Assembly (NCBI GenBank): GCA_963701085.1
Contig: OY969561.1
Coordinates: forward strand, 320,001 to 384,000
Direction of reading: 5' to 3'
Origin: an uncultured bacterium
Lineage (GTDB): Bacteria > Babelota > Babeliae > Babelales > Vermiphilaceae
DNA: 64,000 nt
Made by a program: the position numbers and the translations under genes. The notes beneath the pieces are model-generated. The model ran no database searches. It had not been told where the DNA came from and saw only the letters and a list, made by a program, of their open reading frames with translations. Each line of letters begins with the position of its first letter. Position 1 is the stretch's first letter. This document shows positions 17,326 through 25,260 of this stretch, in pieces.

Positions 17326-17464
17326 TCGTTCTTTTAAAAAAACTTATATTTCTTATTGTTGCTTCATTAAAAAGGTGGTACTATACGTTATCCCAACCAC
17401 ATAAACTTTGGTGGGATTTTTTTTATGGTAGGTACTATTCTTTTTAGGTGGGTTAATAGTTGTG

Positions 17465-18889
17465 ATGCATTTTATTTGGGAAGATTTTTTAACTATTGTT
17501 AGAGAAGAGCTTGGTAGCCGTGTTGTAGAAACATGGTTTAAGGCTGTTTCCATGACCAAATGGGATAGTGCTGAAAAAGTTATTTATTTACAAACGCCTA
17601 ATGCATTTGTGTGTAACTGGCTCGAAAAAAATTACCGTTCTGTTTTTCAAACGCATCTTGGACGATTGCTTAATGTTGCTGATCCCAAAGTTGTATTTTT
17701 AACGACATCTTCCAAAAAAAGTGAACCTATTTTAGAGCAAAGTACTGAGTTGCAGGTCTCGCTTAATGATTCTCAAACACCACAGGAAAAAATGTATCGT
17801 CCGGCACAGGTTATTCCGTATGGTGCTAAAAAAAATACACTGACGGTTTCAAAATTGTCAGAACGGTACGGTCATATTAATAAAAAGTATGTGTTTGAAA
17901 CGTTTGTTGTGGGGCCAAGTAATTCTCTTGCGTATGCAGCGGCGTGTGCTGTTGCACAAAAGCCGGGTGAATTATATAATCCATTATTTCTTTATGGAGG
18001 TTCTGGCCTTGGTAAAACACATTTGCTCCACGCAATTGGCAATGCTATTCAAGCGAATAATAAAAAAGCCCTTGTTTTGTATCAAACAGCAGACCGATTT
18101 GTGAGTGAATTTATTAATGCAATTCGCTTTGATAAAATAGATCGCTTCCAAAAGAAATATCAGTTGGTTGATGTATTATTGATTGATGATATTCAATTTA
18201 TTTCTAATAAAGATACAACGCAAGAAGCTTTTTTCCATATTTTTAATTCACTCTACGATGCGCGCAAGCAGATTGTCTTTTCCAGTGACACTTTTCCACA
18301 AAATATTAATGGTATTGCTGAGCGGTTACGTTCACGCTTGTCATCAGGTATGATTGCTGATATTCATCAGCCGTGCATTGAAGTTAAAACAGCTATTTTA
18401 AAAAGAAAAGCTGAATCAAGTGGTGAGGTTTTGAGTGATGAAGTTGCTCATTTCCTGGCATCGCACGTTACTTCTAATATTAGAGAGTTGGAAGGAGCGT
18501 TGATACGAGTAATTGCCTTTGCACATTTAACCAAAGAGCCAATTGATTTGGCGCTGGTTCAAAAAGTTTTTTTTAATGATGATGAAGGTGTGGAAAAACA
18601 ATCAGTTGATTTTAAGGCGGTTGTTAAGGCTATTACAAAGCACTTTCCCTATTCATTGGATGAACTAAGATCAGAGAATAGGAACAAAGAGTTAGTTTTG
18701 GCGCGTCAACTTACTATGTATATCATGAAAAAACACACCAATAGATCTTTGCGAGAAATTGGTGCTTATCTTGGTGACCGTAATCATACAACGGTCAAAC
18801 ATGCGTTATCTAAAATAGAAGAATATCTTATTGAAGATGTAAAACTCCAACGGCAAATGAGCGCGATAGAAAAAGAGTTTGATCGGTAA
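17465..18889 (+). CDS. dnaA: Chromosomal replication initiator DnaA
   Basis: YNPLFLYGGSGLGKTHLL, LLIDDIQF, RLRSR, NIRELEGAL, RNHTTV. Confidence 0.98.
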   Translation: MHFIWEDFLTIVREELGSRVVETWFKAVSMTKWDSAEKVIYLQTPNAFVCNWLEKNYRSVFQTHLGRLLNVADPKVVFLTTSSKKSEPILEQSTELQVSLNDSQTPQEKMYRPAQVIPYGAKKNTLTVSKLSERYGHINKKYVFETFVVGPSNSLAYAAACAVAQKPGELYNPLFLYGGSGLGKTHLLHAIGNAIQANNKKALVLYQTADRFVSEFINAIRFDKIDRFQKKYQLVDVLLIDDIQFISNKDTTQEAFFHIFNSLYDARKQIVFSSDTFPQNINGIAERLRSRLSSGMIADIHQPCIEVKTAILKRKAESSGEVLSDEVAHFLASHVTSNIRELEGALIRVIAFAHLTKEPIDLALVQKVFFNDDEGVEKQSVDFKAVVKAITKHFPYSLDELRSENRNKELVLARQLTMYIMKKHTNRSLREIGAYLGDRNHTTVKHALSKIEEYLIEDVKLQRQMSAIEKEFDR

Positions 18890-18908
18890 ATTACCACTTC
18901 AATGCACA

Positions 18909-19658
18909 CCCTTCGATACATTTTTGCAGGCAAAAACACTCAGGGCGAGCGGTCCTTCGCTACATTTCGAAGACGAAATACTCAGGATGAGCGGAAGAAA
19001 AAAGATTATAATACCAAACCGCTCGCCCTGATCCATCGATACGTTTTGAAGACAAAACACTCAGGATGAACGGAAGAAAAAATAATACCAAACCGCTCGC
19101 CCTGAGTGTTTTTGCTTGCAAAAATGTATCGAAGGGTGCGGATTAATTATCATCTGTTAAATTTTTTCTTTGCTGATAATGAAAGATCTGCCCAATTTCC
19201 TTTAATTAATGCCTCTTTTTTACGTCGGTTCCATTTTTTTATTTGACGTTCAGCATGAAATGCTTCATCTCGGGTCCCAAAGGATTGCACAAACACAATT
19301 TCTATAGGTAAGCGATGGGAAGTATAGCCATTATATTCACTCAGATGGTGTTCAGAAATTCGTTTTTCAATATTATCAGTATGTCCAACATAATAAGAAT
19401 CATCACTACATTTTAAAATATAAGTAAAAAAATCGCTCATTTTACCTCAAAAACATTAATAAACACGTTATTTTTAATGTGCACCCTTCGATACATTTTT
19501 GTAAGCAAAAACACTCAGGGCGAGCGGAGGGGGGACATGTATAATATCTTCCGTGTATTCTGAGTGCCCCATCAGGAGCGTATTGAAGGAACGCTCATTT
19601 CTTCCCGCTCATCCTGAGTGTTCTCCGAAGTTTTAACGTAGGAGAATGTATCGAAGGA
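18909..19658. mobile_element. Putative mobile element: GIY-YIG gene embedded in a REP cluster, bracketed by a 21-bp direct repeat
   Basis: Starts cccttcgatac and ends gtatcgaagga. Flanks aaattaccacttcaatgcaca (18888-18908) and aaactaccatttcaatgcaca (19661-19681). Seven full and one partial REP copies inside. Confidence 0.75.
19150..19440 (-). CDS. Small GIY-YIG nuclease (UPF0213/YhbQ-like)
   Basis: FTYILKCSDDSYYVGHTDNIEKRISEH, EAFHAERQIKKWNRRKKEALI. Confidence 0.92.
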   Translation of the reverse strand: MSDFFTYILKCSDDSYYVGHTDNIEKRISEHHLSEYNGYTSHRLPIEIVFVQSFGTRDEAFHAERQIKKWNRRKKEALIKGNWADLSLSAKKKFNR

Positions 19659-19663
19659 TAAAA

Positions 19664-20728
19664 CTACCATTTCAATGCACAAGGGTTGATTTTGCATTGA
19701 GCCATGCGGCGATCATTTTTTGTTTGAAGAAATGCGTCTTGGAAGTATTTTGCCCCGAGATAGAGGTACCATTCAAGATGGTTATTGAAAAATGGTTCTT
19801 CTTGTAATCCAACAATTGATGGAAAGTGTTCAGTGTCCACAATGCTCATATGATATTCATCGGTGTCTTTTTGGTGCTTAATAACAAAGTTGTCCGCGTG
19901 AGGATCAACAAACAGGTGGAGATCCATGCAAAGCTCCATGATAAGTTCGCTCTTTTGTTGGGATGATAATAGTGGTGCATTTTCTTTTATATCAATAGTA
20001 TCAGCAACGATAGCATAGACACTTGGCATAAGCGTGGATATCTCTTTTTTGCCACCGATGTTGTAGCCCTTAATTTCCATCCAACGATGTTTTTGAGGTA
20101 GCCAATACCATTTGCGTGGTGTTTTTATTTTACCATTCCAACGGGGATGGTCATCTATCTGTTTTTTCACTAATTCGAGATTTTTGACTCGGGTTAATCC
20201 TGCAATATGACGATTCATGCCACCAGACATGTAAAAAAAGAACTGGTTCTCAAATCCCTTGCAATAAGGATCGATAAATGATTTTGGTGTTTCCATGAAT
20301 AGTTTTAGGACAAATGGATAGTTTTTAAATTGCAATACCAACAGGCCGCATTTTTCTTTATAATTAAAATTTTTGTCTTGTAAGACTATAAAATGAGTGT
20401 ACAGTTTTTTCTGTTTTTTAAGTTCCCTAAGCAACCGCTCGATGCATGAATTGAGCTCGAGACAATTAAATGATGTGCTAGGGTCGTTTATATCATTGAT
20501 ACAATCAGTCGGCAGCATGTGATTGAAGAAATATTCTTTATTGAATGAGGTAAAGATTGGGTACTCTTTATACGCCCAATTGGTGTGAGAGATTACTTTT
20601 TTTACATTTTTCCATCCGATGGTTATTTTAGGCACATCCTTGTCTTTTTTTCTAAAAGGACTGCGCGCTAGCAGATTGGATGAAAAAGTTAAAAAAGTAC
20701 AAATAATGAGAAGTATGGCTCTTTTCAT
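19664..20728 (-). CDS. Secreted protein with atypical kinase-like motifs
   Basis: Signal-like N-terminus; FVLKLF, VDPHADNFVI and SIVDTE motifs. Confidence 0.55.
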   Translation of the reverse strand: MKRAILLIICTFLTFSSNLLARSPFRKKDKDVPKITIGWKNVKKVISHTNWAYKEYPIFTSFNKEYFFNHMLPTDCINDINDPSTSFNCLELNSCIERLLRELKKQKKLYTHFIVLQDKNFNYKEKCGLLVLQFKNYPFVLKLFMETPKSFIDPYCKGFENQFFFYMSGGMNRHIAGLTRVKNLELVKKQIDDHPRWNGKIKTPRKWYWLPQKHRWMEIKGYNIGGKKEISTLMPSVYAIVADTIDIKENAPLLSSQQKSELIMELCMDLHLFVDPHADNFVIKHQKDTDEYHMSIVDTEHFPSIVGLQEEPFFNNHLEWYLYLGAKYFQDAFLQTKNDRRMAQCKINPCALKW

Positions 20729-21032: not shown

Positions 21033-21569
21033 ATGAAGCCAGAGTTGTTGATGTATCGAAACGCCCAAATTGCTGATAGTTTGAGGCGATTGCCGAGAAA
21101 AATGTTACAGCTACATGGTCTCGAAAACATGCCCGACTTTGTTTTGCATGAGCTGTGCAGTAGGGACTGTTTTAATCTACCAAAAGCGGCTTATTTTGTT
21201 GATAATCCCGCTTTTAATTGTTTAAAGGGTGTTGTAGGAGTTTCTGGAGCAGAATTGCAGGGTGTTGAAAATATTTGGACCAGTCCTGATCAATTTATTA
21301 AAACAATCGCTCAATCGCCATTTAATCAGAAGGTACGTGCTTTTACCTATGAGAGTCGTAAAAATCGTGGTCATTCGCCAGAAGAGATGGCGCAAACAAT
21401 TGCGCAGGAGCTTGGTCTGAATGATTATGGTTTTTATTCTTGGGATATGAAGCATGATAATCATGGGTTTGTAGTGTGTGAAAAGAATAAAGCAGAAGAT
21501 AGCGAGCATCCTCAGGATGATGTTATAGTTGATGGGCTTAGTTTATTGAGTTTTTGTCCCATTTATTAA
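21033..21569 (+). CDS. Hypothetical protein
   Basis: 178-aa ORF with AAGGAG RBS upstream; no recognisable motif. Confidence 0.7.
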   Translation: MKPELLMYRNAQIADSLRRLPRKMLQLHGLENMPDFVLHELCSRDCFNLPKAAYFVDNPAFNCLKGVVGVSGAELQGVENIWTSPDQFIKTIAQSPFNQKVRAFTYESRKNRGHSPEEMAQTIAQELGLNDYGFYSWDMKHDNHGFVVCEKNKAEDSEHPQDDVIVDGLSLLSFCPIY

Positions 21570-24703: not shown

Positions 24704-25138
24704 ATGAAAATTGCTATTGGTGCTGATCATCGCGGTTTTTTGCATAAAGAGTTTATTAAAGAACATATGCCATCAATTGAATGGATTGATGTTGGCACGT
24801 ATAACCAGGATCGCACAGATTACCCCATTTTTTCTGACAAGGTTATTGATTTGATACATACTCGTGCTGTGCAACTAGGGGTGTTAATTTGTGCCTCTGG
24901 CGGTGGTATGGCGATAGCGGCAAATAGGAATAAACATATCTATGCTGTTGTTGCATGGAATGTTGACATTGCGCGGCAGTGTAAACAAGAAGATAATGCT
25001 AATGTTTTGGTGTTACCGTCTGATTTTGTTTCTTGTGATGATGCCGTTGTAATGATTACTGAGTGGCTTGCGCAAGAGTTTAAGGGTGGGCGGTATGCTG
25101 AGCGTATTGCAATGATTGACCCTTCGATACACCCCTGA
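24704..25138 (+). CDS. rpiB: Ribose-5-phosphate isomerase B
   Basis: IAIGADHRG, TDYP, LICASGGGMAIAAN, DNANVL, FKGGRY. Last codons derive from a REP. Confidence 0.93.
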   Translation: MKIAIGADHRGFLHKEFIKEHMPSIEWIDVGTYNQDRTDYPIFSDKVIDLIHTRAVQLGVLICASGGGMAIAANRNKHIYAVVAWNVDIARQCKQEDNANVLVLPSDFVSCDDAVVMITEWLAQEFKGGRYAERIAMIDPSIHP

Positions 25139-25260
25139 CGGGGCACTCAGGGTGATCGGGGGAGATGTATTTAGTCTTGGAGAGAGTGCATTTTATTTTA
25201 TGAGATTGTTACCATCCCGCTCGCCCTGAGTGTTTTTGTCCTCAAAAAAGTATCGAAGGG
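25120..25260. repeat. Inverted REP doublet overlapping the rpiB stop
   Basis: Plus copy 25120-25159, minus copy 25217-25260. Confidence 0.85.

Follow-up and report, generated by a model that had tools for sequence, protein, structure and literature searches.

A small GIY-YIG nuclease gene between inverted copies of a genome-wide repeat in a Vermiphilaceae bacterium

A window of 64,000 nucleotides from the genome of an uncultured Vermiphilaceae bacterium (Babelota; assembly GCA_963701085.1, contig OY969561.1, positions 320001-384000) contains, between dnaA and a convergent gene here called orfX, a gene for a 96-residue GIY-YIG nuclease that is boxed by two inverted copies of a repeat scattered over the genome. 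The partnership of nuclease and repeat is real and systematic and holds across phyla. We consider it probable, with some reservation, that gene and repeats form a selfish cassette of about 450 bp whose nuclease recognises the folded single-stranded DNA (ssDNA) of its own end and nicks nearby, the host then completing the copying. The genome holding the window (G000) is one contig of 1,198,634 bp with 37% G+C; other G-numbers denote related genomes, L-numbers extracted loci, and the window copy of the nuclease is g1. Positions are those of the window unless assigned to G000 or to another locus.

A nuclease partnered with a genome-wide repeat

The cassette consists of the following parts.

19078..19527, minus strand: candidate mobile cassette of ~450 bp (unit, nuclease gene, inverted unit); the block recurs at non-orthologous sites in G010, G007 and G002
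19093..19135, minus strand: inner unit, left terminal inverted repeat of the cassette (inverted-repeat comparison and pattern match)
19150..19440, minus strand: g1, GIY-YIG nuclease gene, 96 aa, UPF0213-like class A (Pfam PF01541)
19485..19527, plus strand: inner unit, right terminal inverted repeat of the cassette (inverted-repeat comparison and pattern match)

Over their 44 positions, unit 19093-19136 and the reverse complement of 19484-19527 have a single mismatch. The start codon of g1 is preceded at 5 nt by GAGG, and the product matches the GIY-YIG family (PF01541, E=1.6e-17) over residues 5-75, the sole other Pfam match being a weak overlapping one to T5orf172. Among solved structures it finds PDB 1ZG2 (E=1.7e-13) and PDB 1YWL (E=2e-11), and it is 42.7% identical to the product of B. 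subtilis yazA (E=1e-13). PADLOC returned nothing for g1 and PHROGs one weak endonuclease match; plasmid and phage collections yielded distant homologues only (at most 46% identity), with no vector of the cassette identified among them. G000 holds four class-A paralogues (g1-g4; 54-57% identity to g1), in which Y7, Y16/Y17, G19, R27, H31 and E64 are invariant. The tyrosines of the GIY and YIG motifs, the arginine and the glutamate we take to be the catalytic core, following the I-TevI and UvrC literature. The ratio of nonsynonymous to synonymous substitution rates (dN/dS) is 0.12-0.18 for g1 compared with three cassette orthologues of full length and with a single more distant homologue, which shows, by this measure of sequence change, a gene under purifying selection. 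Decayed copies occur as well: L007 is truncated at codon 47, and matches with internal stops are present in G009 and G019.

The same geometry surrounds the other paralogues. Each of the four class-A genes of G000 has an inverted unit on either side, the inner gap measuring 340-349 nt, and among the 16 adjacent (-,+) unit pairs that are 150-3500 nt apart a gap below 500 nt is found only in the four nuclease pairs. A scan across phyla with one genome per species gave 80 loci and 82 homologous genes (44-75% identity) in at least six phyla, with hosts among the Dependentiae, Chloroflexota, Alpha- and Betaproteobacteria, Myxococcota, Binatota, Eisenbacteria and others. Inward-facing units within 200 nt were present on both sides of 34 of these genes, on one side of 29 and on neither side of 19; 63/82 therefore have a unit on at least one side, the background being 0.0057 units per 200 nt per orientation. 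Unit form and nuclease lineage go together. The g1 lineage (g1 of G000, L163, L164, L165 and C17 of G003) has units of a hairpin form and the g2 lineage (g2-g4 of G000, C57 of G003, C69 of G004 and the gene of G006) units of a short form, genes outside G000 having been assigned to a lineage by profile E-values and nucleotide matches rather than by a tree.

Repeat abundance was then compared with nuclease presence in a set of G000 and 40 relatives, a strong class-A gene being defined by E<=1e-25, a cut chosen after seeing the gap in the scores. Such a gene was present in 10 of the 15 genomes with at least 10 repeats, in 5 of 9 with 1-9 repeats and in 1 of 17 with none, which supports the view that repeat abundance tracks nuclease presence among relatives. 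A first-pass annotation of the window, made from its sequence, had proposed that the nuclease may be the partner of a genome-wide repeat family and had suggested comparing the two across genomes; the flanking of 4/4 paralogues and of most homologues, together with these counts, supports the proposed partnership.

The paralogue g3 (L002) reads through into its own repeat, and its product has the tail ...ILRQTQDERGEE. Repeat translation (such as ...LRQTQDERG) that contaminates predicted proteins, this tail included, is now explained. A fifth small GIY-YIG gene of 80 aa, distant from the others, lies at G000 843855-844097 (L004:256-498, minus strand) and its product ends ...SGSGSAFAKKRFW. It belongs to a third clade, 'class C', with two relatives (L111, L115) in the genome reached via L006; beside class C genes we saw no unit of the CTCAGG type or of the SRM type discussed below.

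Forms, distribution and predicted fold of the unit

On one strand the element reads CGCTCG or CCGCTCG, then YCCT, then GA(R)YYTGTYGA or GAGT-hairpin-GTATCGA, and then AGGR. There are thus two forms, a short one with the consensus CCTTCAACAAGTTCAGGACGAGCGC (106 units) and one with a variable hairpin, CCTTCGATAC-hairpin-ACTCAGGRYGAGCGG. A looser pattern finds ~227 units in 146 clusters in G000 and a strict pattern 76 units; the exact pattern that was applied to the relatives gives 87, and its reversed form gives none. The 146 clusters comprise 74 single units, 44 '-+' pairs, 19 '+-' pairs, some of which include a short-form unit, and 9 larger arrays, so that 63/146 are two-unit inverted pairs. 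The 27 of the 44 '-+' elements that were listed are 70-74 nt long and equal two cassette ends joined to each other, with GAGCGCTC or a close variant at the junction in 26 of them. Gene-less copies take the form of single units, of 72-nt pairs fused at GAGCGCTC, or of hairpin doublets of ~130 nt.

Units are depleted from long open reading frames (ORFs): 54/227 are fully contained in ORFs of 150 aa or more, although such ORFs make up 82% of the genome. The orientation of solo units by replichore was 21/19 and 9/25, the skew-based origin used for this count being itself uncertain. Orphan half-units showed no pattern of a shared truncation or cleavage point, and a promoter scan gave nothing exceeding shuffles.

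Many of the 72-nt gene-less pairs sit in a longer recurring sequence, with AGAACCTATCCCTAAACTAATTTTTTCC on one side and ...GGAAATTTAATATTTTTCGACTTT on the other (in G000 for example at 124478, 208019, 363312, 793286, 909781 and 957702), which suggests a larger composite repeat family. At L088 and at L164 (G002) a hairpin-form unit is interrupted within its CTCAGG box by an insert of 30-60 nt, CCAGACTTCGCACAAGGCTTC to GGGCACGG, that looks like another small element targeting the unit.

Written as 5'-CGCTCG-YCCT-GAAYYTGTYGA-AGGR-...-CGAGCG, the short unit can form two helices. For the outer helix, a complementary 5-mer was found within 20 nt in 89/106 short units against a control mean of 5.8. 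The inner helix of 4 bp closes the conserved loop. In 137 distinct short units of G000 one of its pairs is T-A in 88, C-G in 46, T-G in 2 and G-C in 1, and the next pair is C-G in 122, T-A in 9, G-C in 4 and A-T in 2. The strict cross-phylum set of 128 distinct units from 57 loci of other phyla gives T-A 56/C-G 39/G-C 11, C-G 105/G-C 17 and T-A 111/C-G 9, and three of the four inner pairs show 2 or 3 Watson-Crick types there. This set replaced a permissive regular expression that was swamped in GC-rich loci, where it returned ~60% paired vs 23-62% in controls. Position 9/29 of the short units is G-T in 92/137 and may not be a pair.

The hairpin form carries an extra stem-loop inside the loop, and this hairpin is optional and can be of any sequence: at least 4 consecutive pairs are present in 42/43 distinct hairpin inserts vs 3.2% of shuffles, with 14 different stem starts. 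G-T and A-C pairs in the hairpin stems, counted with regard to the strand of action, number 1 and 2. The proposed helices are reproduced by DNA folding with weak z-scores (-0.8 to -2.8), and because of this the case rests on covariation, which shows that the unit, as far as compensatory changes reveal it, folds as a single strand. The spacer between the two conserved boxes varies from 4 nt to >30 nt. Such variation would fit a protein that reads a folded strand and not a 96-aa protein reading duplex DNA.

Empty and filled sites

In the window the cassette lies in the 774-bp spacer between dnaA (plus strand) and orfX (minus strand). This convergent pair is kept across the family, its convergence holding in most of the relatives' loci examined (L085-L104). 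The remaining features of the locus are:

17462..18889, plus strand: dnaA, left host gene (Pfam Bac_DnaA, E=3.6e-66); its stop codon overlaps the left 21-mer
18888..18908, no strand: left 21-mer, a duplicated orfX 3' end without function (19/21 identical to 19661-19681)
18909..18952, plus strand: hairpin-form unit, outermost on the left of the pile (pattern match and sequence reading)
18954..18994, plus strand: hairpin-form unit (pattern match)
19019..19031, minus strand: truncated unit of which only CCGCTCGCCCTGA is left, abutting the next unit; part of a 79-nt tandem duplication
19033..19073, plus strand: hairpin-form unit (pattern match)
19551..19589, minus strand: degenerate hairpin-form unit (read from the sequence; GTATTGAAGG arm found)
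19605..19657, minus strand: hairpin-form unit with a long hairpin, outermost on the right of the pile (pattern match)
19661..19681, no strand: right 21-mer, the working orfX 3' end, CALKW-stop (direct-repeat comparison)
19664..20728, minus strand: orfX, right host gene, a conserved 354-aa protein (found in 31/41 related genomes)

The units form a pile of eight, fragments included, two of them flanking the nuclease ORF and six more around it. Its left edge is CCTTCGATAC (18910) and its right edge GTATCGAAGG (19648-19657). The picture drawn in the first-pass annotation, of a nuclease gene between near-identical inverted repeats with further copies around it, in a block that begins and ends on a repeat arm, is therefore accurate. 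The left part of the pile (18953-19105) contains the 79-nt tandem duplication (81% identity, with an exact 24-mer at 19008 and 19082), which indicates that the pile grew partly by local duplication. It is likely, as part of the explanation that we favour, that a pile of gene-less copies already stood where the ends of dnaA and orfX abut, and that the cassette inserted into this pile.

That annotation had also predicted an empty site with one copy of the 21-mer in related genomes, and such a site was found. In G001 the dnaA stop is followed by one base and then by TTACCATTTTAATGCATA, the single orfX end, and this genome has neither repeats nor nuclease. The junction is likewise empty in G008 and G010, G006 has a 60-nt spacer with no unit, and G002 has a gene-less unit pair with an 11-nt form of the duplication (TTACCAYTTYA) at its flanks. 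The block 19078-19527 recurs whole, at 72-77% identity, elsewhere in G010, G007 and G002, and the matching sites of G000 are empty (651702/651708 and near 788715-788730). A further intergenic site, near 25100, has three different fillings among congeners and is empty in five; G000 has a hairpin doublet there, and G007 and G004 have short gene-less pairs. Because these empty and filled sites are matched between congeneric genomes, their comparison shows at the level of sequence that the cassette and its gene-less derivatives do insert.

At 25040-25260 (G000 345040-345260) the doublet took the place of the final codon and the stop codon of the upstream gene, which ends ...IAMID-PSIHP-stop inside the repeat; its relatives end ...IAM(I/L)D(K/E)-stop. 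In G010 (L165:1270-2004) the cassette is centred in a larger palindrome whose two arms of ~70 bp share roughly 85% of their sequence, an element nested in another element.

Both 21-mers encode CALKW-stop on the minus strand. The sequence occurs in two copies only in the whole of G000, with up to 4 mismatches allowed, and the longest exact run shared by the pair is 11 nt, compared with 8 nt at the 99th percentile of flank repeats at 2000 random control positions. Since the 21-mer is unique to this place in G000 and the relatives hold one copy, it is a true local duplication of host DNA; the idea that it is part of the repeat was rejected, as it is present at these two sites only. The duplication brackets the whole eight-unit pile and not the cassette at 19078-19527. 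The first-pass annotation was thus right that a duplication (19/21, CALKW-stop in both copies) bounds the block; what it bounds is a composite pile, and it is no hallmark of the element. The flanks of the 146 repeat clusters of G000 show no excess of direct repeats, the mean longest repeat being 5.1 nt vs 4.9 nt in controls, although old duplications could have decayed; flank repeats of at least 8 nt occur at 8/146 clusters vs 2.6% of controls. A second similar case is a cassette-holding block of G002, which is flanked by two similar copies of the 3' end of the neighbouring gene. Such copies of a gene end may be made during some insertions, or they may be the changes that selection tolerates. 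GCAC beside the unit start recurs at other units, and target and unit end therefore share a short similarity.

The two mismatches between the 21-mers had been singled out as synonymous. Both copies do read CALKW-stop, and this needs neither selection on the left copy nor any special explanation: the orfX stop is TTA (plus strand) in all relatives printed and CTA in the working right copy, so that this change, at least, affects the copy on which selection acts in any case.

Of the two host genes orfX matched no Pfam or NCBIfam family in the family library searches, and NCBIfam has no family either for the nuclease or for ORF 21033-21569. The cumulative GC skew of G000 peaks near 0.38 Mb and is lowest near 1.0 Mb; dnaA, at 0.337 Mb, is close to the peak and not to the lowest point, where origins usually fall.

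Known systems and the possible mode of spread

A comparable system has been published. SsnA of Neisseria meningitidis is a 94-aa GIY-YIG protein (CDD cd10448) that cuts ssDNA site-specifically beside the NTS hairpin repeat and does not act on RNA (Chenal et al., Nat Commun 2025, PMC11893778). According to the parts of that paper used here, ssnA homologues have at least one SRM nearby in 71% of cases and SRMs on both sides in 42%, and its Discussion likens the NTS-ssnA-NTS layout to an insertion sequence and to the IS200/RAYT/REP pairing. The claim of the first-pass annotation to a candidate new mobile system is therefore not supported in that form, since small GIY-YIG nucleases flanked by genome-wide hairpin repeats are already described in PMC11893778. 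Its notion of a GIY-YIG nuclease in the place of RAYT is borne out as regards the partnership, and the idea itself had already been put forward there as a hypothesis.

The likeness to the Ssn/SRM pair is close in architecture, a single-domain GIY-YIG protein of ~95 aa with inverted, structured, multi-copy repeats (tens to hundreds) on both sides, and the published flanking rates of 71%/42% are similar to the 63/82 and 34/82 here. The two nevertheless differ. In a quick tree the SRM-flanked nucleases (class B) form a separate clade on a long branch (SH-aLRT 99), and the match to 1ZG2 has an E-value of 1.7e-13 for class A vs 0.042 for class B. In our unit the loop is conserved, the stem variable and the hairpin optional, whereas the NTS, as described in the parts of PMC11893778 used here, is a conserved hairpin with conserved flanks. 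The SRM pattern HGTCWYN(0-2)YYVSBRHN(0-5)WNVSBRGN(0-2)RNCYNB has 0 matches in G000 vs 1-3 in mononucleotide shuffles, and it matches anywhere in 3 and beside the gene in 0 of 83 class-A loci; it does recover units beside class-B genes. Two Sphingomonas genomes and one Dehalococcoidia genome hold both classes, class A with the CTCAGG motif and class B with canonical SRM. In Herbaspirillum frisingense GSF30 we found class A and uvrC only, and in the table of PMC11893778 this genome is scored NO/NO/YES/NO for an ssnA homologue and shows no SRM enrichment (0.98). The only Dependentiae entry in the supplementary files searched, Babela massiliensis, is given there with no SRM and no homologue. Judged by proxies instead of CDD, class A falls outside the cd10448 clade (tblastn E<1e-10; CDD score >100). 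A lenient psiblast search does connect the two families, which are therefore related. On these sequence comparisons the locus is not a member of the Ssn/SRM family as defined in the parts of PMC11893778 used here, and is best described as a sister system.

By sequence the closest relatives are the UPF0213/COG2827 proteins (BH0048 1ZG2, EF2693 1YWL and YazA; Slx1-like), which are of the same size and consist of a single domain. A literature search by family name found no report linking UPF0213/COG2827 with repeats, a search for GIY-YIG with REP, REPIN or bacterial terminal inverted repeats gave nothing relevant among the matches listed, and a search from 2024 on gave nothing further beyond Chenal et al. 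2025.

As in REP/RAYT systems (REPtrons), inverted copies of the commonest palindromic repeat enclose an enzyme gene, further inverted doublets that have no gene are scattered through the genome, and recognition of a folded single strand would be expected. In contrast to these systems the boxed gene is a hydrolytic GIY-YIG and not a Y1 HUH tyrosine transposase, and the motif is conserved across phyla instead of being species-specific. The 72-nt elements resemble miniature inverted-repeat transposable elements (MITEs) of insertion sequences (IS) in being cassette ends minus the gene, in their many copies and in their presence or absence between relatives, and differ from them in lacking a regular target-site duplication. 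A profile search of G000 found no Y1_Tnp (PF01797), OrfB_IS605 (TnpB), DDE_Tnp_1 (PF01609) or rve (PF00665) gene; PF01797 had a match in 6/14 genomes of a control search. This bears on the question, raised in the first-pass annotation, of a RAYT or IS elsewhere in the genome that might be the true partner of the repeat.

GIY-YIG enzymes hydrolyse DNA and form no covalent intermediate, so that copying or rejoining the element must fall to the replication or repair machinery of the host. In the selfish cassette that we favour, a UPF0213/Slx1-like gene would lie between two inverted copies of its own recognition element. The enzyme, by analogy with the Ssn nucleases, would bind the folded single-stranded unit and nick beside it, the ssDNA being supplied by replication forks, by repair or by extruded cruciforms, and forms that lack the gene would be moved in trans, as MITEs or REPINs are. 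On this view the nuclease would be what drives the units' spread.

Several points weigh against this explanation. A hydrolytic nuclease alone cannot carry out strand transfer, and no consistent target duplication or target sequence was found across the 146 clusters. Subtype counts do not follow lineage strictly, since G007 has 94 short units and no g2-type gene and G004 has 81 hairpin units and no g1-type gene. Five repeat-rich genomes (at least 10 units; G005, G016, G017, G023 and G035) are without a strong class-A gene, and a strong class-A gene does occur in G006 and G012, whose repeats number only 4 and 1, and in G024, which has none. The co-occurrence counts come from kin and are non-independent, and they stand as counts with no statistical test. 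Class A is only ~33% identical to class B (median 40 bits), and a yazA-type match (yazA being about 40% identical) is annotated next to a tRNA methyltransferase gene on two Firmicute records. The weak folding z-scores belong here as well.

The strongest competitor, in our view unlikely as the main explanation, is a domesticated host system in which nuclease and repeats restrict or shape the recombination of incoming or replicating ssDNA and the repeats are kept because they are useful. The sister system modulates transformation, and a host role was proposed for SsnA/NTS in Neisseria (PMC11893778, in the parts used here). Purifying selection in the full-length comparisons and the mainly intergenic position of the units would also agree with such a role. 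Yet gene and repeats are patchy within one genus, G001 having neither, the cassette stands at different loci in congeners, each genome may hold several paralogues of which some are decayed, and the enzyme tree interleaves phyla. All of these fit a selfish element better, although a domesticated and a selfish system are not mutually exclusive.

It is less probable still that something else moves the units, either one of the tyrosine recombinases or host replication and repair, and that the GIY-YIG gene is a passenger or a favoured landing site. G000 does have three genes of the Phage_integrase (tyrosine recombinase) family, five repeat-rich relatives lack a strong class-A gene, and the units pile up and nest in one another. 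Against this stand the fixed geometry and matching unit form in 8/8 genus copies examined besides the window copy, the framing of 63/82 genes across phyla and the travelling of the cassette as one block; the recombinase family is present in all 14 control genomes, and its presence in G000 is thus uninformative. One of the three recombinase matches lies in the window at 36925-37431; another, at G000 575621-576124, lies ~400 nt from a gene-less pair/doublet at 576530.

We give little weight to a role at the RNA level, with units acting like REP as terminators, stabilisers or regulators, the fold being an RNA fold and the link to the nuclease secondary. Compensatory pairs cannot separate RNA from ssDNA, three terminator-like matches fall inside hairpin-form units vs 0.8 expected, and units lie at gene ends, where one supplies a stop codon. 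However, no Rfam family matched the units: a search of the window at the gathering threshold and one of 18800-19750 at relaxed thresholds returned only two tRNAs and chance-level matches. Units are also found in either orientation and in inverted pairs, and such a role does not explain why nuclease clade and motif class change together within one genome. SsnA, moreover, is reported to be inactive on RNA (PMC11893778).

GIY-YIG enzymes include homing endonucleases. With empty and filled alleles at hand one might think of a classical free-standing one that cuts a duplex site in cassette-free alleles and is copied in by double-strand-break repair, yet this is very improbable: the product of g1 is just a catalytic domain of 96 aa that lacks a DNA-binding module, no target common to the three insertion sites compared is evident, and more than 200 gene-less copies would not be expected.

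Returning to the selfish cassette, we put forward a wider version of it more tentatively, as a possibility we would not yet bet on. UPF0213-type GIY-YIG nucleases might mobilise a cross-phylum class of elements recognised as single strands, with no regular target duplication. Their 25-nt recognition loop (CCTTCGAC-AAG-CTCAGG and hairpin-bearing forms) would be conserved from Dependentiae to Chloroflexota and Proteobacteria, and the occasional gene-end duplications of 11-21 nt would be a by-product of the sealing by host repair. On this wider version no transposable element known earlier from bacteria would have been driven by a nuclease that only hydrolyses DNA, and the present ones would be the first.

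Three things are new beyond PMC11893778, as far as the parts of it used here extend: the nuclease belongs to another clade, its motif is another one, and there is direct evidence that the elements insert. That a bare GIY-YIG domain is paired with its own structured repeat was established biochemically in 2025, for one clade only, by that work, which left open the reach of the principle and the mobility of the units; the present locus and its relatives bear on both. Mobility was raised there as a hypothesis only, and insertion of the cassette and of gene-less derivatives is now seen in matched sites of congeners. A second enzyme clade with its own motif in at least six phyla suggests that further sequence- and structure-specific ssDNA nucleases exist, and nucleases with new specificities are sought as tools by the authors of PMC11893778.

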